Source of the DNA: Candidatus Zixiibacteriota bacterium
Lineage (GTDB): Bacteria > Zixibacteria > MSB-5A5 > WJJR01
Direction of reading: 5' to 3'
Assembly: GCA_036397555.1 (NCBI GenBank)
Contig: DASWIS010000008.1
Location: 544,206-608,205 of the forward strand
Length of the DNA stretch: 64,000 nt
The notes beneath the pieces are model-generated. The model was not told where the DNA came from. It saw nothing but the letters and a program-made list of their open reading frames with translations, and did no database searches. The position numbers and the translations under genes were made by a program. This document shows positions 1-29,616 of this stretch, piece after piece. Position 1 is the first letter of the stretch. The number at the start of each line of letters is the position of its first letter.

Positions 1-440
1 TTCACACGCATGACAACCTCGACGGTATGAGCCGGACGCTGTCGGCATTGCGGGATCACCCGCGCGGGCTCATATTCACCAACCTGGTGGAGTTCGATAT
101 GACTTGGGGACACCGCAATGATCCGCACGGTTTTGCCGCCGCATTGCGGGGTTTTGACCGGCAGCTTGGCACGTGTCTTCCGATCTTGAACGCAGATGAC
201 GCACTCTTCATCGTTGCCGATCACGGCTGCGACCCGACAACCCCGTCGACCGATCACTCCCGCGAACTGGTGCCGTTGCTTGCCTATGGACCCGGCCTGA
301 GACGCGGTGTTGATCTGGGTTGTCGCGATACGTATGCGGATCTGGCGGCCACGATCGGGGAAGTCTTCGGAGTTCCCCACAGAGCGGCGGCGACCAGTTT
401 CCTGGGCGACATCATCCCCCGAATTGCTGAAGCCGAATGA
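1..440 (+). CDS. deoB: phosphopentomutase, C-terminal part (gene begins upstream of the window)
   Basis: ORF 27..440 is in frame with the window start. The motif TNLVEFDMTWGHRND and the C-terminal region are typical of phosphopentomutase. Confidence 0.85.
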   Translation, partial: HTHDNLDGMSRTLSALRDHPRGLIFTNLVEFDMTWGHRNDPHGFAAALRGFDRQLGTCLPILNADDALFIVADHGCDPTTPSTDHSRELVPLLAYGPGLRRGVDLGCRDTYADLAATIGEVFGVPHRAAATSFLGDIIPRIAEAE

Positions 441-453
441 TCCACACGCTCTT

Positions 454-879
454 ATGTTGATACCGGCCGACCGACTGAGCGAACTGGAGACACGCGCCAT
501 CGCGTTGGCGCGCATGGCGCAGGAATGGGCGCATGCCCCGTACTCGAACAAACTCGTCGGCGCCGCTGTGATAACTGCTGCGGGATCGATCTTCACCGGC
601 TGCAATGTTGAGAATCTGGCCGGAGAACTCGGAGTGTGCGCCGAACGCAATGCCATCGGAGCGGCAATCGCCGCCGGTCATCGTGACTTCAGCACCGTTG
701 TGGTGATCGCGCCCGATGAGCGCCTGTGGCCGCCCTGCAATCTCTGCCGTCCGGTGATCGTTGAGTTTTCCGCCAATCCCTCGGTTCTTCTGATCAGCGG
801 CGAGTCGATCTGGCGCGCACGATTCACCGAATTGGGCGATCGCCCGTTTTCCGCCGACGGGAACAGACCGAACGCATGA
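454..879 (+). CDS. cdd: cytidine deaminase
   Basis: Contains the CAERNAI and PCNLCRPV zinc-ligand motifs. The internal ATG at 454 gives ~141 aa. The upstream part of ORF 307..879 is rejected because it overlaps deoB. Confidence 0.85.
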   Translation: MLIPADRLSELETRAIALARMAQEWAHAPYSNKLVGAAVITAAGSIFTGCNVENLAGELGVCAERNAIGAAIAAGHRDFSTVVVIAPDERLWPPCNLCRPVIVEFSANPSVLLISGESIWRARFTELGDRPFSADGNRPNA

Positions 880-1169
880 AACTGGGATTTGTCGCCGGAA
901 CGCTGTGGAACGGCCGTCAGCATGCCGCGCTCGATGGCGCCAAATTGCTGGTCGTGCGCTTTGTTGATCGCGATTTGAAGCCGACCGACGACTATGCCAT
1001 CTGCGCCGACGCGGTCGGGGCCGGTGTGGGGGAGTGGGTCTTGACCGTGGCCGGTTCGTCGGCGCGACTGACCGAGCGCACGCGACGTACTGCGACCGAC
1101 AACTCCATCGTCGGAATCGTCGACCAACTCGACATCGATTCAGCGTATCGATATGTCAGCAAGCGCTAA
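876..1169 (+). CDS. bacterial microcompartment vertex (BMC-P) protein, EutN/CcmL/PduN family
   Basis: The 97 aa sequence MKLGFVAGTLW..GAKLLVVRFVD..DAVGAGVGEWVLTVAGSSAR..IVGIVD matches the EutN/CcmL pentamer consensus. ATGA overlap with cdd. Confidence 0.8.
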   Translation: MKLGFVAGTLWNGRQHAALDGAKLLVVRFVDRDLKPTDDYAICADAVGAGVGEWVLTVAGSSARLTERTRRTATDNSIVGIVDQLDIDSAYRYVSKR

Positions 1170-2019
1170 AACCGTCCCATCGCGACGCGTGCTCATCACG
1201 GCCGCCGATTTGAAAGGTGTGTCAGACCGGCTGCTTGTTCCGATCAACGCGATTATCACACCGTCCGCGCACGACCAGGCCGCCCAATCCGGTATCACCA
1301 TCATCCGTGAACAGCGCGTGACTGCTCCGTTGACCGTCAAGCCGGGCCGCCCGACACGCACTGTGACCAGTGTCGCACGTGTCATCGATCATACGAATCT
1401 GTCACCTTTGGCGACGCGTGACGACATCGCCTCGCTGTGCGGCGAGGCACGGGATTACCGGTTCGCGTCAGTCTGCGTCAGCCCGCCCCACGTTTCGGGG
1501 GCGGCATCTGAGACGCGTGGTACCGATGTCGCCGTCTGCTCCGTGGTGGCATTTCCATTGGGCGCGCATGATTCACAACTCAAGGCATCGGAAGCGCTGG
1601 AGTGTGTCAAATCGGGCGCGCGCGAAATCGACATGGTCGCCAACAGCGGGCTTTTGCATTCGGGCGAACTTCGCGCCTACTACGATGACATCGCCCTCGT
1701 CCGCCGGGCGATTGGCCGCGAAATCAAACTGAAAGTCATCATCGAAGCGCCGTTGCTCGATGAGTGCGACATCGTGCGTGCGGGTGTGCTGGCGGCCGAG
1801 GCGGGCGCTGATTTCATAAAGACTTCAACCGGAGTGTATTCACAGGCGCGCGCGACCGACGTCCACTTGCTCAAACGCGCGCTCGGTTCGCGTGTCCAGA
1901 TCAAAGCCGCCGGGGGCATCCGCGATGCCCAATCCGCCTGCGCCATGCTCGATGCGGGGGCTGACCGTCTGGGCACGTCGTCGTCGATTGCGATTATGTG
2001 GGAGTTGGGGGCGAGATAG
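1153..2019 (+). CDS. deoC: deoxyribose-phosphate aldolase with ~45 aa N-terminal extension
   Basis: IDHTNL and FIKTSTG motifs are present with a Schiff-base lysine region. The start overlaps the BMC-P gene by 17 nt. The N-terminal ~75 aa before IDHTNL is longer than in typical DeoC. Confidence 0.85.
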   Translation: MSASAKTVPSRRVLITAADLKGVSDRLLVPINAIITPSAHDQAAQSGITIIREQRVTAPLTVKPGRPTRTVTSVARVIDHTNLSPLATRDDIASLCGEARDYRFASVCVSPPHVSGAASETRGTDVAVCSVVAFPLGAHDSQLKASEALECVKSGAREIDMVANSGLLHSGELRAYYDDIALVRRAIGREIKLKVIIEAPLLDECDIVRAGVLAAEAGADFIKTSTGVYSQARATDVHLLKRALGSRVQIKAAGGIRDAQSACAMLDAGADRLGTSSSIAIMWELGAR

Positions 2020-5630: not shown

Positions 5631-6744
5631 ATGGAAGGTCTCGACACAATCAACGAAAAGCTCGAACGGCTGCGGAGGTTCCTTTGACATTGATGGTCTG
5701 CGCCGACAGATCGCCGACCTCGAAGAGCAAAGTGGATCGAGCCAATTCTGGAACGATGGCCAGGCCGCGCGCAGCACGTTGAAGCAGCTCTCGCGCGCTA
5801 AGTTTTGGGTCGTCCGCTACGATTCGTTGCAGCAGCGCCTGCAGGACACCGCAACCCTCTGGGACCTCTCCGAGGAGGAAGCGGACCAATCCGCCAGGGA
5901 CGAAGCATCCTCCGAGGCCGCCAAACTCACCGGGGATGTCCGCACATTCGAGTTTCAATCGCTGCTCTCCGGCGAAGACGACCAAAACGACTGCCTGATC
6001 ACGATCCATTCCGGCGCGGGCGGGACCGAATCATGCGACTGGGCCGAGATGCTCCTGCGCATGTACACGCGGTGGATCGAGCGTCGCGGCTTCAGCTACG
6101 ACACGCTCGACTACACTCCCGGTGATGAAGCCGGAGTCCGATCGGTCACGCTCGAAGTGCAGGGCGATTTCTCCTATGGACACTTGAAGGCCGAGGTCGG
6201 CGTGCATCGGCTGGTCCGCATCTCGCCATTCGACGCCAACAAGCGCCGTCACACGTCATTCGCGTCGGTCTTTGTCATCCCCGAGGCCGGGGAAGAAGTC
6301 GTCATCGAGATCAAGGATGAGGATTTGCGCGTCGACACGTACCGCGCCTCCGGCGCAGGCGGCCAACATGTCAACAAGACCTCATCGGCCGTGCGCATCA
6401 CGCACATCCCGACCAACATCGTTGTGCAATGCCAGACCGAACGCTCGCAGCGCCAGAATCGCGAAGCGGCGATGAAAGTCCTGCGCGCGCGGCTCTATCA
6501 GCTCGAGAAAGAAAAGGCCGACGCCAAGAAAGCCGAGATGGCGAAAGCCAAGAAAAAGATTGAGTGGGGCAGTCAGATTCGTTCTTATGTCTTTCAGCCC
6601 TACCAGATGGTGAAGGATCACCGCACCGGCGTGGAGACATCGAATGTGCAGGCGGTCATGGACGGCGACATCGACGATTTCATCGAAGGGTTCCTCAGCC
6701 ACGGACAGGCCGGAGTCATGACTGTCCCGCAGGCGGAATCGTAA
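5631..6744 (+). CDS. prfB: peptide chain release factor 2, with programmed +1 frameshift at CTT-TGA-C (5682-5688)
   Basis: Frame-0 ATG 5631 reads MEGLDTINEKLERLRRFL then TGA at 5685-5687. An internal SD GGAGG lies 3 nt upstream of CTT. The +1 frame continues into the SPF/GGQ-containing ORF 5779..6744. Confidence 0.9.
5675..5690 (+). other. RF2 autoregulatory +1 ribosomal frameshift site (GGAGG-ttc-CTT TGA C)
   Basis: The sequence ggaggttcctttgac matches the canonical prfB shift site. Confidence 0.85.
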
Positions 6745-6945: not shown

Positions 6946-7032
6946 CCGCAGCCGTACCCAAAGCGAGATCATGAGACCGAGTCCATGTCGCACACAGCAC
7001 CATCGTCACTGGATGAAGAGGCGACCGACAAT

Positions 7033-8037
7033 ATGATGAATCCCCTGCAACACATCCGCGAGCGGGCGCGACGGATCAAAGCGCGCATCGTCCTGCCCGA
7101 GGGGACCGATCCCCGCGTGATCATGGCCGCGCGATCGCTCGCGTCCGAAGAAATCGCGCAGGTCACGTTGCTGGGCGATGAACGCGCTGTTCGTCAAGCC
7201 GCCGAAGCCGAACACTTGTCTCTGCGCAAAGTGACCATCATCGATCCGGCGTTGTCGCCGCAATTGGCCGAGTATGCCGCCGAACTGCGCAAGCTGCGTC
7301 CCGACCAATTCCCGACCGACGACACGGCGCGCACACAAGCGGCCGACATCCTCTGGTATGGAGCGCTCATGGTGCGCACCGGCGCGGCCGATGGCATGGT
7401 CGGCGGTGCGGCGCACACCACCAGCGATCTGTTGCGCGCGGCGCTGCGGGTGGTCGGGCTGGCGCCGGGGATCAAGACCGTGTCGGGATACTTCTTCATG
7501 GTCTTCCCGCGATTCAACGACGAACTCAACAAGGTCTTCATCTTCGCCGACTCGGGTGTGGTGCCCGATCCCGATGCCGCGCAGCTTGCCGACATTGCGA
7601 TTTCCTCGGCGGGTGCGTATCGATTGCTCACCGGCGATGAACCGCGTGTGGCGCTGCTCTCGTTTTCGACCAAAGGCTCAGCGAAACATCCGATGCTCGA
7701 CAAGATCACCGAGGCGCTCTCGCTGATCCGTCGGCGCGATTCGGCGCTAATCTGCGATGGCGAGTTGCAGCTTGATGCGGCGCTTGTCCCCTCGGTGGCG
7801 CGCAGCAAAGACCCCGACGGCATGATTGCGGGCAAGGCCAATGTCCTGATCTTCCCCGACTTGAACTCCGGCAACATCGCCTACAAACTCGCCGAACGGA
7901 TGGCGGGCGCCAAGGCGGTCGGCCCGCTCTTGTCGGGTCTGGCCAAACCGGTCAACGATCTCTCGCGCGGCTGCTCCGCCGAAGACATCGTCAACGCCGT
8001 CGCCGTCGCCGCGGTGACCTCCCGGCCCGGGCGATAG
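7033..8037 (+). CDS. pta: phosphate acetyltransferase
   Basis: Full-length similarity to Pta (RIVLPEG..., SGN..AYK, C-terminal VNDLSRGCSAEDIVNAV). The start is taken at MMNPLQHIRERA. Confidence 0.85.
   Translation: MMNPLQHIRERARRIKARIVLPEGTDPRVIMAARSLASEEIAQVTLLGDERAVRQAAEAEHLSLRKVTIIDPALSPQLAEYAAELRKLRPDQFPTDDTARTQAADILWYGALMVRTGAADGMVGGAAHTTSDLLRAALRVVGLAPGIKTVSGYFFMVFPRFNDELNKVFIFADSGVVPDPDAAQLADIAISSAGAYRLLTGDEPRVALLSFSTKGSAKHPMLDKITEALSLIRRRDSALICDGELQLDAALVPSVARSKDPDGMIAGKANVLIFPDLNSGNIAYKLAERMAGAKAVGPLLSGLAKPVNDLSRGCSAEDIVNAVAVAAVTSRPGR
7949..8014 (+). repeat. direct repeat copy 1 (pta 3' end), matches 11583-11648
   Basis: 66 bp identical except for one mismatch to the downstream copy. 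Confidence 0.8.
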
Positions 8038-8112
8038 CTGTCCTTGGGCCTCCGCATGCGTCGCTGAGGCAGAACTGTCAGAATGTGGGACCAGTCTTCC
8101 CCGAATAGAAAA

Positions 8113-8128
8113 GTTAGGTTGACCTAAC
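8113..8128 (+). promoter_or_regulatory. palindromic operator-like site GTTAGGT-tg-ACCTAAC overlapping a -35 box
   Basis: Perfect 7+7 inverted repeat. Resembles the DtxR/IdeR iron-box half-sites TTAGGTTAG/CTAACCTAA. Confidence 0.5.
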
Positions 8129-8147
8129 AATCGTCTGGCGCTATGAT
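8119..8147 (+). promoter_or_regulatory. σ70-like promoter (-35 TTGACC, 17 bp spacer, -10 TATGAT)
   Basis: TTGACC at 8119-8124 and TATGAT at 8142-8147. Sits ~70 bp upstream of the OMP gene start. Confidence 0.5.
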
Positions 8148-8175
8148 CGCCGCGGGTTTTTCCGAAGGAACTAAC

Positions 8176-8189
8176 TTAGGCGCACCTAA
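8176..8189 (+). promoter_or_regulatory. second palindromic site TTAGG-cgca-CCTAA in the 5'UTR
   Basis: Shares the TTAGG/CCTAA half-sites with 8113-8128. Lies ~30 bp upstream of ATG 8218. Confidence 0.45.
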
Positions 8190-8217
8190 CTTTCAATCCG
8201 CCAAGGGGACATATCAA

Positions 8218-9399
8218 ATGACGAGATCAGCAATCAGGATCGTTCTCCTGAGTTTTGGGCTGACGACAATGACCGCCGTACCGGTTGGCGCACAGTTGGC
8301 TCCGGGCAGCCGACCATCAGTTCCCGGAGGAATCTATGACAAACCCTACCTGCAGAATTACAGCGGTGGCATCGCGCTGGGAGGGTACATGGATCATGAA
8401 CTCTTCGTGCAGCCCGACCATTCGACCTTCGATCAGCACCGTTTCATTCCCTTCATCTTTGCCTCCCCGACCGAATACATTCATGTCACCGCGGAGATCG
8501 AATTCGAACACGGCGGGCTGGTGAAAGGAAGCGGCACTAGTGACGGCGAGATTAAGCTGGAGTTCGCCGTCATGGACTGGGTGATCAGCGATGCATTCGG
8601 ATTTCGCGGCGGGGTGATCCTGACCCCGCTGGGAAAGCTAAACCTCACCCACGACAGCCCCTTGCAGGACCTCACCAACCGTCCTCCGGTGTCGAGCCAA
8701 CTGATCCCGACTACGCTTTCGGAATCCGGGATGGGTGTGTTCGGCGTGTTGTACCCGGGCGATTGGGTCGTCGGCTACGAACTGTACGTCGTCAACGGTT
8801 TCAACGAGAAGATCATCACCGGCGCCGGCGATCTGCGTGTGCGCGGCGGGCGCGGCTCGCAGAAGAGCGACAACAACGAAAACAAAGCCGTCACGGGCCG
8901 TCTCTCGGCTTCGCCGATGCTGGGTCTGGATGTCGGCGTGTCCGCGCACAGCGGCACCTATGACCCCGCCGGTGAGCATCGACTGACCATCGCTGCGGCC
9001 GACTGGGACTGGCAACGCGGTCCGTTCCAGTTCCTCGGTGAGGCGGCCTTGGTGAATGCCGAGATCCCGTCCGCCGAACTGCGCCTCGCGCAGACCGGTT
9101 CAGCCGACATTACCCAACGCGGTCTGTATGCTCAGGCGAACTATCACTTCGGTTTCGGCACAATCCGGCGATACCCCGAAAGCGTCTTCACCAGTATCGT
9201 GCGCTGGGATTATGTCGACTTCAATGCCGACGCCTCCGGTGACGACACACAGCAGGCGACCGTGGGCTTGAACTTCCGTCCGGTCGAACGCAGCGTGGTC
9301 AAAGCCGATTACCGCTGGGGCTGGTCTCGCGGATCCGGGACCGAATCCTGGTCGAGGCCGGACAAGCTCTTCAGCTTCTCCGTCGCCACCTACTTTTGA
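8218..9399 (+). CDS. outer-membrane β-barrel (porin-like) protein, hypothetical
   Basis: Signal peptide MTRSAIRIVLLSFGLTTMTAVPVGAQ. β-strand-rich alternating pattern. C-terminal aromatic residue (..ATYF). Confidence 0.55.
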   Translation: MTRSAIRIVLLSFGLTTMTAVPVGAQLAPGSRPSVPGGIYDKPYLQNYSGGIALGGYMDHELFVQPDHSTFDQHRFIPFIFASPTEYIHVTAEIEFEHGGLVKGSGTSDGEIKLEFAVMDWVISDAFGFRGGVILTPLGKLNLTHDSPLQDLTNRPPVSSQLIPTTLSESGMGVFGVLYPGDWVVGYELYVVNGFNEKIITGAGDLRVRGGRGSQKSDNNENKAVTGRLSASPMLGLDVGVSAHSGTYDPAGEHRLTIAAADWDWQRGPFQFLGEAALVNAEIPSAELRLAQTGSADITQRGLYAQANYHFGFGTIRRYPESVFTSIVRWDYVDFNADASGDDTQQATVGLNFRPVERSVVKADYRWGWSRGSGTESWSRPDKLFSFSVATYF

Positions 9400-9440
9400 T
9401 CCTGAACCGACTGACCGTGAACCGGATCGATCCGATTCCG

Positions 9441-10481
9441 ATGACACGACGGCGCTTTGTCGCGCTCGGTGCGATGTCGGCCCTCGGCGCGCTGATCCCG
9501 GCGCCTCTTCGGCGGCTTGTCGAGATTCCCGGCGACAGGTACTCAGACCTTCTGTGGTCTATGGGGGGCTGGAACCTGATCGAGGTGCGCGCACACACTT
9601 CGGACGGGGCCGCCGCCGCGATCTCCGTGGCCAAGGACGCCATCCGGCAAATCGATCGGACCTTCTCGGTCTTCGACCGCCGTTCCAAACTCTCTCGGAT
9701 CAATCACGACCGTGGATGTCACGTAGCCATCGACGATCAATCCATTCTCAACGGCATCGCGGCGGCGCTGCGCTGGGCGTCGGCGTCGGCAGGTGCCTTC
9801 GACCCCACAGTCGAACCGCTCATGAGGCGCTGGGGATTTCGCGAAGGCATCGACCGCGCCGTCGACGGCAATCAATCATCGTCATGCGATCATCGGGCAA
9901 TCGAACTGGATCTGGCGCGGGTATGCCTGCGGCGCGAGACACCCCAATTGCAACTGGATTCGGGCGGCTGGGCGAAGGGATGGGCGGCCGGATTGGCCGC
10001 ACAGGCCGCGCTCCGCCACGGTGCGGTCGAGGCGCTGGTCAACTGCGGCGGCGATATCGCGCGTGCCGTTGCGCACGGCAACCCGGAGTGGACCTGCGGC
10101 ATACGCAACCCGGCGGGCACGCGGCACGAAATTGTAGCCCGGGTCCGCCATATATTCCCGGCCGCGGCGACATCGGGTGACTATGAAAACTACCGGCTCG
10201 ACGACCACAACAGGCGCATCGGCCATCTGATGGATCCCCGATCACGCCGACCGGCAATCACCGATTTGTTCTCGGCGACCGTCTTCGCTCATGATGCCCT
10301 CGCGGCCGATGCGATGGCGTCGGCGCTGTTTGTGATGGGCTCCGCCCGGGCCACGCGCTGGCTTTCGGCGCATCCAGATTTCGCGGCCGTTCTCATCACC
10401 GATGCCGATTCGGGCACTGGCCTCCGCATTCAGGCGATCGGTCCGATCGATTTGACCGCCGTGCCCTTGCCGCGCGGGTAA
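9441..10481 (+). CDS. apbE: FAD:protein FMN transferase (ApbE/Ftp family), TAT-secreted
   Basis: ApbE motifs FDPTVEPLMRRWGF, LDSGGWAKGWA, ATSGDYENY, HLMDPRS. Twin-arginine signal MTRRRFVALGAM. Confidence 0.85.
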   Translation: MTRRRFVALGAMSALGALIPAPLRRLVEIPGDRYSDLLWSMGGWNLIEVRAHTSDGAAAAISVAKDAIRQIDRTFSVFDRRSKLSRINHDRGCHVAIDDQSILNGIAAALRWASASAGAFDPTVEPLMRRWGFREGIDRAVDGNQSSSCDHRAIELDLARVCLRRETPQLQLDSGGWAKGWAAGLAAQAALRHGAVEALVNCGGDIARAVAHGNPEWTCGIRNPAGTRHEIVARVRHIFPAAATSGDYENYRLDDHNRRIGHLMDPRSRRPAITDLFSATVFAHDALAADAMASALFVMGSARATRWLSAHPDFAAVLITDADSGTGLRIQAIGPIDLTAVPLPRG

Positions 10482-10487
10482 AGACGC

Positions 10488-11081
10488 ATGAGAACCCCGG
10501 TGCCCATCCTCGTGATTTTGCTCGTTCCGATGTCCTGCCCGCGCGGATACGCGCAGGAGCCGACAGAAGACGAAATCGGTACTGTGCAGGTTCTCACTTC
10601 GGAGGAGCATGCCCTGGCGGCGATCTTTCCCGATGCCGATTCCGCTCATCCCGGCGTTATTGCCCTCGATTCCATCCGCCGTGAGGCGTTACGCGCGTTG
10701 CTGGGCCGACATGTGCGTGACTCCGCGTTCGTCTATTTTGATGTCTTTGCGCAGGGACGACGTGCAGGAACAGCCGTCATCGCCGAGGAACGCGGCAAAT
10801 ACCGCCCCATCACCTTCATGGCCGGCGTTGATACCGCGCTGCGAATCGTTGATGCCCGCGTGCTGGTCTACCGTGAGAGCCGGGGGGGAGAGGTGCAGCG
10901 CACGCGCTTTCTGAAACAGTATCGGGGCAAGTCCCTCAACGACCCGATCCGCATCAACCGCGACATCATCAACATCACCGGCGCGACCATCTCGGTCAAT
11001 GCGCTCAATGCCGGAATCCGCAAAGTCCTGGCGGTCGCGGCCCTCCTGCATCCGCCGGCAACGGGGGAGGGGGGGCCATGA
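10488..11081 (+). CDS. FMN-binding domain protein with flavinylation motif (TGATIS)
   Basis: Signal peptide. The C-terminal FMN_bind-like region DIINITGATISVNAL matches the [S/T]GA[T/S] ApbE target motif. Confidence 0.75.
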   Translation: MRTPVPILVILLVPMSCPRGYAQEPTEDEIGTVQVLTSEEHALAAIFPDADSAHPGVIALDSIRREALRALLGRHVRDSAFVYFDVFAQGRRAGTAVIAEERGKYRPITFMAGVDTALRIVDARVLVYRESRGGEVQRTRFLKQYRGKSLNDPIRINRDIINITGATISVNALNAGIRKVLAVAALLHPPATGEGGP

Positions 11082-24108: not shown

Positions 24109-24204
24109 CCAAGATGTCCCCCCCAAGAAAGTGATGGACACGCGCCTCCCCCTGCGCTACCACCAGCGTGATGGGCTGGCTTGCGCGCCATGACACTTGA
24201 GCAA
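24109..24204 (+). repeat. imperfect direct repeat R, spans the helicase start codon
   Basis: Aligns to 22290-22383. Includes TTG 24181/ATG 24190 and codons TLEQI. Confidence 0.7.
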
Positions 24205-26517
24205 ATCCTCGAACGGCTGCGGCACGATCCCAATGTCGCGCATTGGCACACGCTTGAGGCGGCGGACGGGGTCTATGCCGATTTTCCTGCGAGTCTGGAC
24301 CCACGGCTGGCCGAGGCGGCGAAGCGACGGGGCATTCGGCGGCTCTATCGCCACCAAGCCGACAGCGTCGAGCAAGTCGCCGTCGGACGCAATGTGGTTG
24401 TGGTCACGCCGACTGCTTCAGGAAAGACCCTCTGCTACAATCTGCCGGTATTAAACGCGGTGTTGGCCGATCCCTCGGCGCGGGCGCTGTACCTGTTTCC
24501 GACCAAAGCGTTGGCGCAGGATCAAAAGTCCGAACTGCTTGGCTGGATCGAGGCGCTCGAGGCCGATATCAAGGCGCACACCTTCGATGGCGACACCCCG
24601 GCGATGGCGCGGCGCGCGGTCCGCATCTCCGGGCATGTCGTGGTCACCAATCCCGACATGCTGCACACCGGGATTCTGCCGCATCACACCAAATGGGTCA
24701 AACTCTTCGAGAATCTGCGCTTTGTCGTCATCGACGAACTGCACCACTACCGCGGCGTCTTCGGCTCGCATCTGGGCAATGTGATCCGGCGTTTGCTGCG
24801 CATTGCCCGGTTCTACAACGCCGATCCGCAATTCATCGCCTGCTCCGCGACCATCCACAATCCCGGCGAGCTGGCCGAACGGATCGTGGGCAGGCCCTTC
24901 ACCGTGATCGACCAAAGCGGCGCGCCGACCGCGCAGAAGCATGTGATCTTCTACAACCCGCCGGTCGTCAATGAGCCGCTCGGCATCCGTCGGTCGTCGC
25001 TTTCGGTTGCCAACCAATTGGCGGCGACATTCCTGACCAACCAAGTCTCAACCATCGTCTTCGCACGGATGCGTCGCTCCGTAGAAGTCATCCTCACATA
25101 TTTGCGTGAGCATCTGCGACGGGAAAAGCAGGACCCGAATCTGGTCGAGGGATACCGAGGCGGGTATCTCCCCAACGAACGACGCAGCATCGAACGCGGG
25201 CTGCGCGAGGGATCGATCCGCGGCGTGGTCTCGACCAATGCCCTCGAACTGGGAGTCGATGTCGGCGCGCTCGATGTGGCGATCCTGACCGGCTACCCCG
25301 GCACCGTGGCCTCGCTTTGGCAACAGATCGGCCGCGCCGGAAGGCGCTCCGGCTTGTCCGCCGCAATACTTGTCGCTAATTCCTCGCCGATCGATCAATT
25401 CCTGATGCGCAATCCCGAATACCTGATCGGCCGCTCGGTCGAGTCGGGCATTATCGATCCAACCAATCTTGTCGTGCTAATGTCGCACTTGAAATGCGCG
25501 GCATTTGAGCTGCCGTTCTCGGAGGACGACAAGTTCGGCGTAGACCACACCCTGCCGATGTTGCAATACCTTGAGCAGAACCGCGTCTTGACACGTTCGG
25601 CGGGGCGCTTCTTCTGGGCATCGGAGGTGTATCCCGCCGCCGAGGTCTCGCTGCGTTCGGCATCGCCGGAAAACTTCGTCATTCACAACAGTTCCGATGG
25701 CAACAAGATCATCGGCGAGGTCGACTATTTCTCCGCGCCCGTCTTCCTGCATCCCGAGGCGATATATCTGCATGGCGCCGAGCAATACCAAGTCGAGGAA
25801 CTCGACTGGGATGGACGGCGCGCGTATGTGAAATCAGTCGATGTCGAATACTTCACCGACGCCGAGACCAAGACCGACTTAAAGATTCTCACAGTCGACA
25901 AAGACCGCCGCACCCCCGATGCGCGCCTGTCCTGCGGTGAAGTTGCGTTGACCACGGTCGCGGTGCTCTACAAAAAGATTCGCTTCCACACGCACGAGAA
26001 TGTCGGCTCCGGGCAGATTCGTCTCCCCGAACTCGAGATGCACACGACTGCGTTTTGGATCGAGTTTCCTGAAAACGTCTTAGAGCGGCTCGATCTTCCG
26101 ATCGGCCAGACCGGCTCGGTCCTGCATGCTGCCGCCAACGCCTTGGGACAGATGGCGCCTTTGTGGGTGATGGCCGATCCGCGCGATGTCGGCGCGCTTT
26201 CACAGGTGCGCTCGCCGCGTTCGGGGCTGCCGACTCTGTACCTTTACGACAACATCCCCGGCGGAGTGGGATTCTCGCAGCGCATCTACGAAATGGCAGG
26301 CCAGCTCTTCACCGAGACCGCCAACATGATCGCCGCCTGCCCCTGCCGCAGCGGGTGCCCATCGTGCGTCGCACCCGAAATGGCAGTCGGCGCAACCGGC
26401 AAACGCGGCGCGGAGGCATTATTGCGTTTCGCCGCCGCTACCGCCGACCTCTCACTTGACCCGATCATCGATCAGCCGGTCGCCGAGCTCGCCGCCGATG
26501 AAGGCGGGATGGATTGA
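24181..26517 (+). CDS. DEAD/DEAH-box helicase with C-terminal Cys4 domain (MrfA/YprA-like, COG1205/DUF1998)
   Basis: Walker A TPTASGKT, DELH box, helicase C motifs (QQIGRAGRR). C-terminal CPCRSGCPSCV zinc motif. Possible starts are TTG 24181 or ATG 24190. Confidence 0.85.
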   Translation: MRAMTLEQILERLRHDPNVAHWHTLEAADGVYADFPASLDPRLAEAAKRRGIRRLYRHQADSVEQVAVGRNVVVVTPTASGKTLCYNLPVLNAVLADPSARALYLFPTKALAQDQKSELLGWIEALEADIKAHTFDGDTPAMARRAVRISGHVVVTNPDMLHTGILPHHTKWVKLFENLRFVVIDELHHYRGVFGSHLGNVIRRLLRIARFYNADPQFIACSATIHNPGELAERIVGRPFTVIDQSGAPTAQKHVIFYNPPVVNEPLGIRRSSLSVANQLAATFLTNQVSTIVFARMRRSVEVILTYLREHLRREKQDPNLVEGYRGGYLPNERRSIERGLREGSIRGVVSTNALELGVDVGALDVAILTGYPGTVASLWQQIGRAGRRSGLSAAILVANSSPIDQFLMRNPEYLIGRSVESGIIDPTNLVVLMSHLKCAAFELPFSEDDKFGVDHTLPMLQYLEQNRVLTRSAGRFFWASEVYPAAEVSLRSASPENFVIHNSSDGNKIIGEVDYFSAPVFLHPEAIYLHGAEQYQVEELDWDGRRAYVKSVDVEYFTDAETKTDLKILTVDKDRRTPDARLSCGEVALTTVAVLYKKIRFHTHENVGSGQIRLPELEMHTTAFWIEFPENVLERLDLPIGQTGSVLHAAANALGQMAPLWVMADPRDVGALSQVRSPRSGLPTLYLYDNIPGGVGFSQRIYEMAGQLFTETANMIAACPCRSGCPSCVAPEMAVGATGKRGAEALLRFAAATADLSLDPIIDQPVAELAADEGGMD

Positions 26518-26848: not shown

Positions 26849-27361
26849 ATGGATCAGGTCATTTTCTGGGCGGCGGCGATTGTTGCCGCGCTGGCAGCAC
26901 TCAGGACAGTCACGCTCCGTCATCCGGTCTCGGCGGTGTTGCATCTGATTGTCACACTGGTGGCGCTGGCGGTCCTGTTTTTGCAGTTGTCCGCCGAGTT
27001 CATCGCCATGTTACAGATCATCGTCTATGCCGGGGCGATCATGGTCCTGTTCCTGTTCGTGTTGATGCTGCTGAATCTGCGTAAGGACGAATTCGGTTCC
27101 GATGAAATCCCAGGCGTCAAGTTTTTAGGCGGCCTCCTGGCCATTGTCCTGTTGGTCGAATTCCTGGCGGTCTTTTCCAGCGGTGGGGCCGATGTATCTC
27201 CGATGCCGGAAGGATTCGGCGGCATCCGCACCATCGGGCGATTGTTGTTTAGCAAATACCTCCTGCCATTTGAACTGACCGGCCTGCTGCTGCTCGCCGC
27301 CGGATTGGCGGTCATCGTCATCGCGCGCGAAAAGTCACCGCGTCAGACCGAGGACATGTAG
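26849..27361 (+). CDS. nuoJ: NADH-quinone oxidoreductase subunit J
   Basis: Characteristic hydrophobic NuoJ N-terminus. Confidence 0.85.
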
Positions 27362-27362
27362 C

Positions 27363-27671
27363 ATGCTGCCGGTCCCGCTGTCTCACTATCTCATTCTTGC
27401 GGCTGTGCTCTTTGTCATCGGCGTCGTCGGCGTCATCTCGCGCCGCAATGCCATCGTCGTGCTGATGGGTGTCGAACTCATGCTCAATGCCGCCAATCTT
27501 TTGTTGATTGTCTTCTCACGCGTGCACGCCGACCACAGCGGACAGGCGATGGTCTTCTTCGCGCTGACCGTCGCGGCCGCCGAAGCCGCAGTCGGGCTGG
27601 CGCTGTTGGTGGCGGTGTTCCGCCGCAAAGGCGTGATCAATGTCGATGCGCTCAATATGTTGAAGGGATAA
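27363..27671 (+). CDS. nuoK: NADH-quinone oxidoreductase subunit K
   Basis: 102 aa, 3 TM, motif [12 protein letters not shown]. Confidence 0.9.
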
Positions 27672-27687
27672 AAACCGAATACGCATC

Positions 27688-29616
27688 ATGACGTCTCTGA
27701 TCTGGACCATACCGCTGTGGCCGTTGGCCGGGTTTCTGCTCAATGGCTTCTTCGGCCGCCGTTGGGGGAAGCAGTCGACCGGGATGATCGCCTGCGGCAC
27801 GGTCGCCGTGTCGTTTGCGATCTCGGCGGCGGCGTTTCTCTCGTTGCTCTCGCGGGAGCCGCGTCAAATCATCCAAACACCGTTTCTCTGGATCGGTGTC
27901 GAGGATTTCCGAGCGTCGTTCAGCATCCTGTTTGATCCGCTCTCGGCGGTAATGGTCCTGGTCGTGACCGGAGTGGGATTCCTGATTCATGTCTACTCGA
28001 TCGGTTACATGGGTCACGATCCCGACTTCTCGCGCTACTTCGCATTCCTGAATCTGTTTGTCTTCTTCATGCTCATGCTCGTATTGGCCGACAACTTTCT
28101 GCTGCTGTATGTCGGCTGGGAGGGTGTCGGGCTGTGTTCGTATCTGTTGATCGGTTTCTGGTACAAGCGCGAATCGGCCGCGCGCGCGGGGATGAAGGCG
28201 TTCATCGTCAACCGCATCGGTGATTTTGGGTTTGCGATCGCCATCTTCCTGATCTTCACGACATTTGGCACCATCGGATTCCAACAGGTGTTCGCGGCGG
28301 CGCCGGCGGTCGCGGGAATCGCCGGTGCGACCATCACCGCCATCTGCCTGTTGCTCTTCCTCGGCGCGACCGGAAAGTCGGCCCAGATACCGTTGCATGT
28401 CTGGCTTCCCGATGCGATGGAAGGTCCCACGCCGGTCTCCGCGCTCATTCATGCCGCCACCATGGTCACAGCGGGAGTCTATTTGGTGGCGCGTTGTTCG
28501 GCGCTTTTTGCGCTCTCGCCGGTGGCGATGATGACAGTCGCGATCGTCGGGGCCGCCACCGCGCTCTTTGCCGCGAGCATCGCTCTGGTGCAAAACGACA
28601 TCAAGAAGGTGCTGGCCTATTCGACAATCAGCCAGTTGGGATACATGTTTCTGGCGCTCGGAGTCGGCGCGTTCGCGGCCGGAATCTTCCACCTGATGAC
28701 GCATGCTTTTTTCAAGGCGCTGCTGTTTCTCGGGGCGGGGAGCGTCATCCACGCGCTGTCCAGCGAGCAGGATCTGCGTAAGATGGGCGGTCTGCGCCAC
28801 GCCCTGCCGATTACATTCCGTACGTTCCTGATTGCGGCGCTGGCGATCGCCGGAATTCCGCCGCTGGCCGGGTTCGTCTCCAAAGATGAAATCCTCTGGA
28901 AGTCATTCTCCTCACCGGTCGGCCACTGGGCGCTGTGGGCGATCGGCAGTCTGACCGCGCTGCTCACCGCGTTTTACATGTTTCGTTTGGTATTCCTGGC
29001 CTTTTACGGTGAGAAACGCTACGCCGACGATATTCACCCACACGAGTCGCCGGCGTCGATGGCGATCCCGCTGATTGCCCTCGGCATTCTCTCGATAGCC
29101 GGCGGCTGGATCGGCTGGCCCGGTGCGCTGGGCGGCGGCGCGTGGATCGAACACTTTCTCGAGCCCGTGTTTGCCCAGGCGGATGCGGCGCTCCAACTGG
29201 GGGCACACACGGCATCGCGGACCGCCGAATACGCACTGATGGGCACGTCGGTGCTCGTTGCGCTCATCGGGATCGCATGGGCGAATCGCTGGTATGTCCA
29301 CAATCCGGCCGCAGCGGAAGCGATGCAGCGGCGTCTTGCCGGTTTCTACAACGTTTTGGCCAACAAATACAGGATCGATGAATTGTATGACTCGACCGTT
29401 GTGCGTCCGTTGATCGTACTGGGAACGAAGATCTATCGGCGCTTTGATCTCGGTGTCATCGATGCGACCGCCAATGGCGTTGCCTCCACCGCGCAGCAGG
29501 CGGCATCCGAAGGCGTCGCGCTGGCCACCGGACGATTCCGCTGGGGCGCGGTCACCTTTGCGCTCGGATGTGTCATCGGTGTCGGCTGGTTGTTGTTCGT
29601 GTTTGTGGACGGTTGA
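27688..29616 (+). CDS. nuoL: NADH-quinone oxidoreductase subunit L
   Basis: Antiporter-like subunit motifs (WLPDAMEGPTPVSALIHAATMV). Confidence 0.9.
   Translation: MTSLIWTIPLWPLAGFLLNGFFGRRWGKQSTGMIACGTVAVSFAISAAAFLSLLSREPRQIIQTPFLWIGVEDFRASFSILFDPLSAVMVLVVTGVGFLIHVYSIGYMGHDPDFSRYFAFLNLFVFFMLMLVLADNFLLLYVGWEGVGLCSYLLIGFWYKRESAARAGMKAFIVNRIGDFGFAIAIFLIFTTFGTIGFQQVFAAAPAVAGIAGATITAICLLLFLGATGKSAQIPLHVWLPDAMEGPTPVSALIHAATMVTAGVYLVARCSALFALSPVAMMTVAIVGAATALFAASIALVQNDIKKVLAYSTISQLGYMFLALGVGAFAAGIFHLMTHAFFKALLFLGAGSVIHALSSEQDLRKMGGLRHALPITFRTFLIAALAIAGIPPLAGFVSKDEILWKSFSSPVGHWALWAIGSLTALLTAFYMFRLVFLAFYGEKRYADDIHPHESPASMAIPLIALGILSIAGGWIGWPGALGGGAWIEHFLEPVFAQADAALQLGAHTASRTAEYALMGTSVLVALIGIAWANRWYVHNPAAAEAMQRRLAGFYNVLANKYRIDELYDSTVVRPLIVLGTKIYRRFDLGVIDATANGVASTAQQAASEGVALATGRFRWGAVTFALGCVIGVGWLLFVFVDG

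Follow-up and report, generated by a model that had tools for sequence, protein, structure and literature searches.

A microcompartment vertex-protein gene in a deoB-cdd-deoC operon of Zixibacteria: a candidate satellite of a fragmented-locus microcompartment

Introduction

Why should a gene for a shell protein of bacterial microcompartments (BMCs) lie inside an operon for nucleoside catabolism, and does the aldolase gene that follows it serve the same compartment? The question is raised by the first 2 kb of a 64,000-nucleotide stretch of Candidatus Zixiibacteriota DNA (NCBI GenBank assembly GCA_036397555.1, contig DASWIS010000008.1, forward-strand positions 544,206 to 608,205), which as a whole is referred to below as the window, and in which eutN, the gene for a vertex protein (BMC-P) of the EutN/CcmL family, stands between cdd and deoC. 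In nucleoside breakdown, Cdd deaminates (deoxy)cytidine, a phosphorylase releases deoxyribose-1-phosphate that DeoB converts to the 5-phosphate, and DeoC, the deoxyribose-phosphate aldolase (DERA), splits deoxyribose-5-phosphate into glyceraldehyde-3-phosphate and acetaldehyde. The locus is read here, with moderate confidence, as a satellite of a dispersed ('fragmented-locus', FRAG) microcompartment, in which a module at the N-terminus of DeoC would dock the aldolase to a shell whose hexamers would be encoded elsewhere in the genome.

Microcompartments of this dispersed kind are widespread in the FCB group and in candidate phyla, and their function and cargo have stayed obscure because they offer neither a compact locus nor recognisable encapsulation peptides, as set out in the supplement to the catalog of Sutter et al. 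2021 (Nat Commun 12:3809).

The vertex protein and its operon

The first 2 kb of the window comprise four genes on the + strand, the identities of which are all backed by Pfam and NCBIfam. These genes and the parts of DeoC discussed below are as follows:

1 to 440, + strand: 3' end of deoB (phosphopentomutase; NF003766, E 6e-42, and PF01676)
454 to 879, + strand: cdd (cytidine deaminase, 141 aa; NF004064, E 1.5e-26, and PF00383)
876 to 1169, + strand: eutN (EutN/CcmL-family vertex protein BMC-P, 97 aa; PF03319, E 1.4e-24)
1153 to 2019, + strand: deoC (deoxyribose-phosphate aldolase, 288 aa from ATG 1153, with an alternative start at GTG 1189; TIGR00126, 218 bits)
1183 to 1311, + strand: microcompartment-associated module of ~43 residues, DeoC residues ~11-53, RRVLITAADLKGVSDRLLVPINAIITPSAHDQAAQSGITIIRE, conserved in 14 orthologues
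1312 to 1371, + strand: Pro/Thr-rich variable linker from the module to the aldolase barrel, DeoC residues ~54-73, poorly conserved, pLDDT 73-77

A first-pass annotation, made from the letters alone, had assigned the 97-aa open reading frame (ORF) at 876-1169 to the EutN/CcmL (BMC-P) family, and a search against PF03319 (EutN_CcmL) bears this out with 86.8 bits (cut-off 25) over profile positions 1-83 of 83. The closest solved relative is the shell vertex protein of H. ochraceum (PDB 5V74, from the 6.5-MDa shell), matched over residues 1-92 with E 2.8e-18, and on these sequence grounds the 97-aa ORF encodes a true BMC-P. The protein belongs to a Zixibacteria-specific clade, across the alignments of which the motifs VGAGxGE, GSSAR and IVGIVD are invariant or at least 90% conserved; within VGAGVGEW (residues 47-54), A49, G50 and G52 never vary, and conservation is 90% or more at G48 and E53. 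The GAGxGE motif is reported to contact hexamers at the Arg of (A/P)RPH and the Lys of KAA (PMC13370225), and because it is kept throughout the clade, the hexamer-contact motif is read as retained. Residues 9-16 of the protein encoded at 876-1169 carry the clade signature GTLWNGRQH, where canonical BMC-P proteins have GTVVATxK, and all clade members share W11, N12 and Q15. An identical 97-aa protein is encoded on 18 public metagenome contigs, the longest of which measures 189 kb.

The overlaps on which the first-pass annotation had based co-translation of eutN with its neighbours can be read directly in the sequence: the stop codon of cdd (TGA, 877-879) and the start codon of eutN (ATG, 876-878) share a 4-nt ATGA, and the eutN gene, ending with TAA at 1167-1169, overlaps deoC by 17 nt if ATG 1153 is the deoC start. 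Gene callers differ on this start, giving a protein of either 288 aa (ATG 1153) or 276 aa (GTG 1189), and ATG 1153 is favoured because orthologues keep basic residues ahead of a conserved 'VIT'. On the source contig (L001; handles beginning with L denote loci, and those beginning with P denote proteins), deoB is complete at 8372-9565 and encodes 397 aa, and it is preceded, with a 4-nt overlap, by the operon's first gene (7965-8375), the 136-aa product of which has an N-terminal hydrophobic segment that probably spans the membrane and matched no Pfam family. The operon is composed of five genes, in the order small membrane protein-deoB-cdd-eutN-deoC, and eutN is probably translationally coupled within it.

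Orthologues of the small upstream protein, of 114-137 aa, are found at L013 7775-8119, L015 7301-7714 and L016 8018-8401, and no gene is called at the corresponding position of L011. The gene for this protein shares 4 nt with deoB in L001, L015 and L016 and 1 nt in L013; between lineages the protein is 37-39% identical, with the core 'DS.R.FY.AY...RDG'.

Conservation of the operon in Zixibacteria

The constraint on each gene was expressed as the mean pairwise identity over five lineages:

RpoA: 79.6%
EutN: 74.5%
DeoB: 69.1%
L17: 66.5%
DeoC core: 57.7%
Cdd: 55.6%
DeoC module: 39.1%

EutN is nearly as conserved as RpoA and stands above L17, DeoB, the DeoC core and Cdd. The order deoB-cdd-eutN-deoC and the ATGA overlap of cdd with eutN are kept in four further lineages (L011, L013, L015 and L016), and the spacing between eutN and deoC ranges from the 17-nt overlap to a gap of 204 nt. 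In a scan of GTDB with one genome per species, in which loci were pulled by two clade patterns (one of them the signature VC.D.VGAG), the Zixibacteria type of EutN was found in only seven species, all seven of which have deoB, cdd, eutN and a module-bearing deoC, with one BMC-P per locus. Most of the other 71 BMC-P loci from the scan adjoin genes for the shell proteins BMC-H or BMC-T and for an aldehyde dehydrogenase (AldDh).

These figures bear on the possibility that there is no functional link at all, BMC-P being a remnant left behind when a microcompartment was lost and the extension no more than an ordinary, lineage-specific N-terminus of DeoC. Such a remnant would account for the missing shell partners in the neighbourhood; however, EutN surpasses L17, DeoB, Cdd and DeoC in conservation, its ATGA coupling is conserved, and the extension proves to be a widespread microcompartment-associated module and not a private sequence, all of which makes this explanation very improbable. 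The vertex protein is not a relic, since its conservation ranks among the highest of the region, where it is among the most constrained proteins.

The aldolase and its N-terminal extension

DeoC matches TIGR00126 with 218.4 bits (cut-off 117.3), over residues 74-282 only, and judged by this match it is a bona fide DERA; D160 (in EIDMV), K194 (in LKVIIE) and K223 (in KTSTG), which we take to be the counterparts of the catalytic D102, K167 and K201 of E. coli DERA, are invariant in the orthologue alignment. Ahead of the barrel stands an extension of ~73 residues, made up of the ~43-residue module and a linker of variable length. The first-pass annotation was right that an N-terminal extension is present and that it is linked to microcompartments, but its estimate of ~45 residues was too short. 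The homologues of DeoC that bear the same extension form a clade at ~50% identity, the source labels of which are Zixibacteria or Zixiibacteriota, together with a few metagenome-assembled genomes (MAGs) labelled Ignavibacteria or Acidobacteriota. Over 14 orthologues the module has the consensus '[KR]R.VIT..D(I/L)......L.VP...I(V/I)TP(S/A)A.D.A...G(I/V).I'.

The AlphaFold (AF2) model of full-length DeoC has a mean pLDDT of 92.8, with 84-93 in the module and 73-77 in the linker, and it predicts for the extension a compact beta-alpha-beta mini-domain (strand 14-15, helix 17-20, strand 26-30, helix 37-46 and strand 49-53), the topology of which is the same when the module is modelled in isolation. 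A fold search of the isolated module against the PDB gave nothing significant (best E 1.3), no Pfam model covers the module (0 families for the module protein P0202), and the window's DeoC by itself matches TIGR02536 with an E-value of only 0.24.

An encapsulation peptide (EP) is described as an amphipathic helix of ~15-20 residues that a flexible linker connects to the cargo (Sutter et al. 2021). As modelled, the DeoC extension is not a canonical EP: a linker is present, but there is no long amphipathic helix and only a helix of 10 residues. The idea of the first-pass annotation that the extension could serve as an encapsulation peptide does not hold for the predicted mini-domain, in which residues 10-35 form no amphipathic helix.

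Distribution of the module

A profile built from 14 Zixibacteria-type module sequences was searched against 1.84 billion representative proteins (E <= 1e-3) and gave 921 matches, of which 84 were scanned for their domain content. Among the proteins scanned, the module falls in the C-terminal part of TIGR02536 ('ethanolamine utilization protein', 'eut_hyp'), where it repeats, in 42, at the N-terminus of EutQ (NF012001 profile positions 8-51) in 18, and at the C-terminus of PduM in 9; a PF02441 flavoprotein domain is found in 10, RpiB in 8 and DeoC in 3, and EutC, PduL, EutD, EutT, Pta, TIM, ACT and EutN domains in one or two each. Many matches (P0202-P0207, P0209, P0216, P0219, P0220 and P0336) carry a classical EP helix in addition to the module, and the module is therefore a separate device and not a variant of the EP.

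The top matches other than DeoC are Hydrogenedentota proteins of 160 aa with the arrangement EP-module-helix-module, one of which (P0203) is encoded in a compact and complete microcompartment locus (L018 400-12100, GCA_964499705.1) with PduL/PTAC, BMC-H, BMC-P, AldDh, an RnfC-N protein and BMC-T, which is flanked by genes for a 5'-nucleotidase and a concentrative nucleoside transporter; from its sequence, this 160-aa protein looks like a scaffold. A further match of the representative search, the 178-aa fragment P0327, has a module-bearing C-terminus that runs into a BMC-P domain ('...IEIARGGEK-MELGIVVGRV...'), and this single case, incomplete at both ends and weak as evidence, may represent either a real fusion or an artefact of gene calling.

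Published data on EutQ and TIGR02536 fit a shell-docking role of the module: EutQ without residues 1-100 no longer pulls down the hexamer EutM (PMC4827028), and a structural interactome predicts a complex of TIGR02536 with EutL in Listeria (PMC13181095). The supplement of Sutter et al. describes a 'EutQ-like' N-terminal extension, occurring in microcompartment contexts only and left unnamed as a domain, on the MIC2 dehydrogenase, a EutQ-like protein of ~130 aa in SPU6, and an unknown domain of ~50 aa after the EP of the ACI AldDh; these are probably the same module. The ~40-residue module, which lies outside Pfam, may accordingly be of use as a candidate cargo tag and as a search key where EP searches fail.

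Proposed role of the locus

In the dispersed microcompartment proposed here, deoxyribose-1-phosphate would be released by a phosphorylase encoded outside the operon, and the module, rather than a classical amphipathic EP, would dock DeoC onto the shell tiles, so that acetaldehyde would be released inside, or directly at, the shell. The vertices of this shell would be capped by BMC-P, a product of the mRNA that also encodes DeoC, and genes elsewhere in the genome would supply BMC-H or BMC-T and an acetaldehyde dehydrogenase. This reading is supported because BMC-P is full length, is close to a structurally proven vertex protein and keeps GAGxGE; because EutN is under strong selection in a conserved operon; because the module occurs on the cargo of real microcompartment loci; and because two shell proteins of Zixibacteria, a BMC-P and a PduT-like BMC-T, are entered as fragmented in the catalog of Sutter et al. 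2021. The latter two come from Zixibacteria RBG_16_53_22, whose 87-aa BMC-P stands on a long branch of the catalog's trees and whose BMC-T has 183 aa; both are flagged 'fragmented (sat) (omitted)', and no FRAG type is assigned to them (Sutter et al. 2021). Beyond the supplement of that catalog, a search of the literature on Zixibacteria and microcompartments found nothing relevant.

Several points weigh against the dispersed-microcompartment reading. Shell genes were sought by phmmer (with --max for the hexamers) over six-frame translations of the 64-kb window and its flanks, with PduA, EutM and CcmK2 and the Hydrogenedentota BMC-H and BMC-T of locus L018 as hexamer queries. With these queries no PF00936-type protein was found within the 64 kb, in keeping with the first-pass statement that the window holds no BMC-H genes, and from 10 kb upstream to 63 kb downstream there is no BMC-H, BMC-T, AldDh, PduL/PTAC or RpiB; RnfC-N, TIM and a second DeoC were likewise not found by phmmer over the same range. 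The seven Zixibacteria-type loci from GTDB have no BMC-H/T, AldDh, PTAC or RpiB in the fetched flanks (at most 10 kb per side), and the hexamer negatives cover these loci and flanks only. A homologue search with the Hydrogenedentota BMC-T of L018, of a kind that needs shared 5-residue words, gave 65 matches, none of which is labelled Zixibacteria. The substitution of LWNGRQH for VVATxK could signal a changed role of the vertex protein, which is, moreover, single at the Zixibacteria locus, whereas fragmented loci typically have a triplet (or pair) of BMC-P genes (Sutter et al. 2021). Shell binding has been shown in vitro solely for the whole N-terminal region of EutQ, and the authors of that work assumed binding to the outer face of the shell (PMC4827028), so that a luminal position of DeoC is putative.

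The same absences could be taken to mean that no hexamers are involved and that the BMC-P pentamer now acts as a small, co-opted scaffold in direct contact with the DeoC module, organising DERA oligomers, for example, or channelling between Cdd, DeoB and DeoC without a closed compartment. Such a shell-independent complex is unlikely, although it would suit the lack of hexamer or trimer genes near the seven GTDB loci, the invariant adjacency of BMC-P and module-bearing DeoC even in a lineage without deoB and cdd, the altered surface that the clade-specific LWNGRQH loop suggests, the direct joining of module and BMC-P domain in the fragmentary P0327, and the empty EP-HMM searches in FRAG genomes reported in the Sutter supplement. 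It is at odds with the retention of the GAGxGE hexamer-contact motif (invariant or at least 90% conserved) in a protein about as conserved as RpoA, with the PduT-like BMC-T of a Zixibacteria MAG (Sutter et al. 2021), with the assignment of the syntenic Ignavibacteria BMC-P genes to type FRAG1, which has its BMC-H elsewhere, and with the presence of the module on the cargo of complete shells in other organisms. The stronger form of this idea, in which Zixibacteria would be devoid of any shell hexamers and BMC-P with its LWNGRQH loop would be a compartment-free pentameric docking platform for the module-tagged aldolase, is decidedly unlikely; if it were true, hexamer-free Zixibacteria would represent a shell-free second life of a microcompartment vertex protein.

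Genomic surroundings

The first-pass annotation had further proposed that BMC-H genes may lie upstream of deoB and had likened the locus to the microcompartments of the sugar-phosphate-utilising (SPU) type. In such a case, the window would begin at the edge of a classical SPU main locus, in which the genes for BMC-H/T, AldDh and PduL would directly precede deoB and DeoC would carry a canonical amphipathic EP. SPU microcompartments with DeoC do exist (Sutter et al. 2021), and other DeoC homologues (P0054, P0077, P0082 and others) do bear helix-type, Cys-rich extensions. What lies upstream, however, is the ribosomal spc/alpha cluster (rplF ... secY, adk, map, infA, rpsM, rpsK, rpsD, rpoA, rplQ), followed by a terminator-like hairpin and T-run between rplQ and the operon and then by the gene for the small membrane protein; the 10 kb upstream hold no BMC-H/T, AldDh or PduL, and no RpiB, AldDh, PTAC or BMC-H/T was found nearby that would support kinship to an SPU main locus. 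The extension of DeoC, too, is predicted as a beta-alpha-beta mini-domain and not as a helix of 15-20 residues. Over the 10 kb upstream and the 63 kb downstream, a compact SPU locus with a helix-type EP is refuted, and the proposal as a whole is hardly credible.

Downstream of deoC, a convergent PBP1A gene lies 20 nt past the operon end. Twenty genes were annotated between 7 and 30 kb of the window, and wherever Pfam matched, they are housekeeping genes (pta, apbE, rlmN, bacA, a ROK kinase, an MrfA-like helicase and nuoJKL). The product of pta (6985-8037; PF01515, E 7e-113) was considered as a microcompartment enzyme and rejected: it has no module or extension, PBP1A, tyrS and prfB intervene between it and the operon, and the gene is missing from this place in L013 and L016. 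Pta could process acetyl-CoA derived from acetaldehyde, but nothing links it to a compartment. The gene, 5 kb downstream of the operon, is kept at the same position in L011.

Other features of the window were noted in passing. The release factor 2 gene prfB (5632-6744) has a classical programmed +1 frameshift site, in which the frame opened by ATG 5632 reaches ...CGG AGG TTC CTT TGA C at ~5674-5688 and continues in the ORF at 5779-6744. At 24181-26517 lies the gene for an MrfA/Hrq1-like DEAD-box helicase that ends in a C-terminal MZB zinc domain, and matches to nuoJ, nuoK and nuoL follow it at 26849-29616, as part of the housekeeping content.

Comparison with known systems

The closest likeness is to the fragmented loci of Supplementary Data 2 of Sutter et al. 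2021, the components of which are spread over up to six genomic places and in which EP-HMM searches find nothing. The Zixibacteria locus agrees with these in its BMC-P beside DeoC, the lack of other shell genes nearby and the lack of a recognisable EP, and it differs from them in that its BMC-P gene lies inside a deoB-cdd-deoC operon with overlapping reading frames. Two of the catalogued types bear a particular resemblance: FRAG3, in which DeoC adjoins BMC-P, and FRAG1, a shell-protein-only type of Ignavibacteria, Bacteroidetes and Rhodothermaeota that often has a PduS/T pair (Sutter et al. 2021). In the catalog parts searched, in which 'phosphopentomutase' and 'pfam01676' gave no match, neither a deoB next to BMC-P nor an extended FRAG3 DeoC is mentioned.

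An arrangement of deoB with BMC-P that is syntenic with the Zixibacteria locus does occur in the phyla of FRAG1. Ten loci, from MAGs of Melioribacteraceae, Rhodothermales and Bacteroidetes and from one 'uncultured bacterium', have one deoB and two BMC-P matches (L030 at 8180-10563, L035, L040, L043, L045, L046, L047, L052, L054 and, for the 'uncultured bacterium', L064), with no BMC-H/T within the fetched flanks of at most 10 kb per side. In L030, the only one of the ten for which the gene order was read and thus the only one in which rplQ was seen upstream, rplQ ... deoB comes before a pair of small ORFs, after which stand two adjacent BMC-P genes, the first of which has W11 and the VC.D.VGAG signature in common with the Zixibacteria clade. 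Each of the ten loci had been retrieved by one or other of the scan's two clade patterns, of which this signature is one. These loci are probably a FRAG1 satellite, which would tie FRAG1 to pentose-phosphate handling. A second variant is offered by the P0075 lineage (JGI 3300042731 contig), whose DeoC is 43% identical and has the module: an 85-aa BMC-P overlaps DeoC by 4 nt, and the pair is convergent to rplQ-rpoA, without deoB or cdd, and preceded by unknown small proteins of 151 and 104 aa. Because related phyla show this synteny, the Zixibacteria operon is regarded as one form of an old and recurrent linkage of BMC-P to deoxyribose-phosphate enzymes, which adjoins the alpha operon wherever its surroundings were seen (the Zixibacteria-type loci, L030 and the P0075 contig). 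The recurrence of BMC-P next to deoB and/or deoC hints at deoxyribose or nucleoside catabolism as a function of FRAG microcompartments; the general picture of microcompartment biology is changed neither by this lead nor by that of the module as a tag.

SPU microcompartments have DeoC as a signature enzyme, acetaldehyde as its product and, as presumed substrate, deoxyribose phosphate derived from nucleic acids (Sutter et al. 2021). DeoC is what the Zixibacteria locus has in common with them, and RpiB and DeoC proteins of the SPU type (P0209, P0220 and P0336) bear the same module. SPU loci are compact, however, with RpiB, AldDh, PTAC and BMC-H/T/P together, whereas the Zixibacteria locus has only DeoC and BMC-P, and the SPU DeoC usually carries a helix-type EP, often with a Cys-rich segment, neither of which is found on the Zixibacteria DeoC. 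EutQ, TIGR02536 and PduM have the ~40-residue sequence module in common with the Zixibacteria DeoC; in EutQ and TIGR02536, it is attached to a cupin or to a stand-alone repeat protein, whereas in Zixibacteria it is attached to an aldolase, for which shell binding is putative. Loci of the HO (H. ochraceum) type I likewise include a satellite, in which BMC-P genes adjoin an aldolase gene (Sutter et al. 2021), but HO also has a compact main locus with BMC-H/T, and the BMC-P loop of H. ochraceum is the canonical VVASRK in place of LWNGRQH. Set beside these systems, the Zixibacteria locus fits a member of the fragmented-locus microcompartments that had been unclassified until now, and not a new system.

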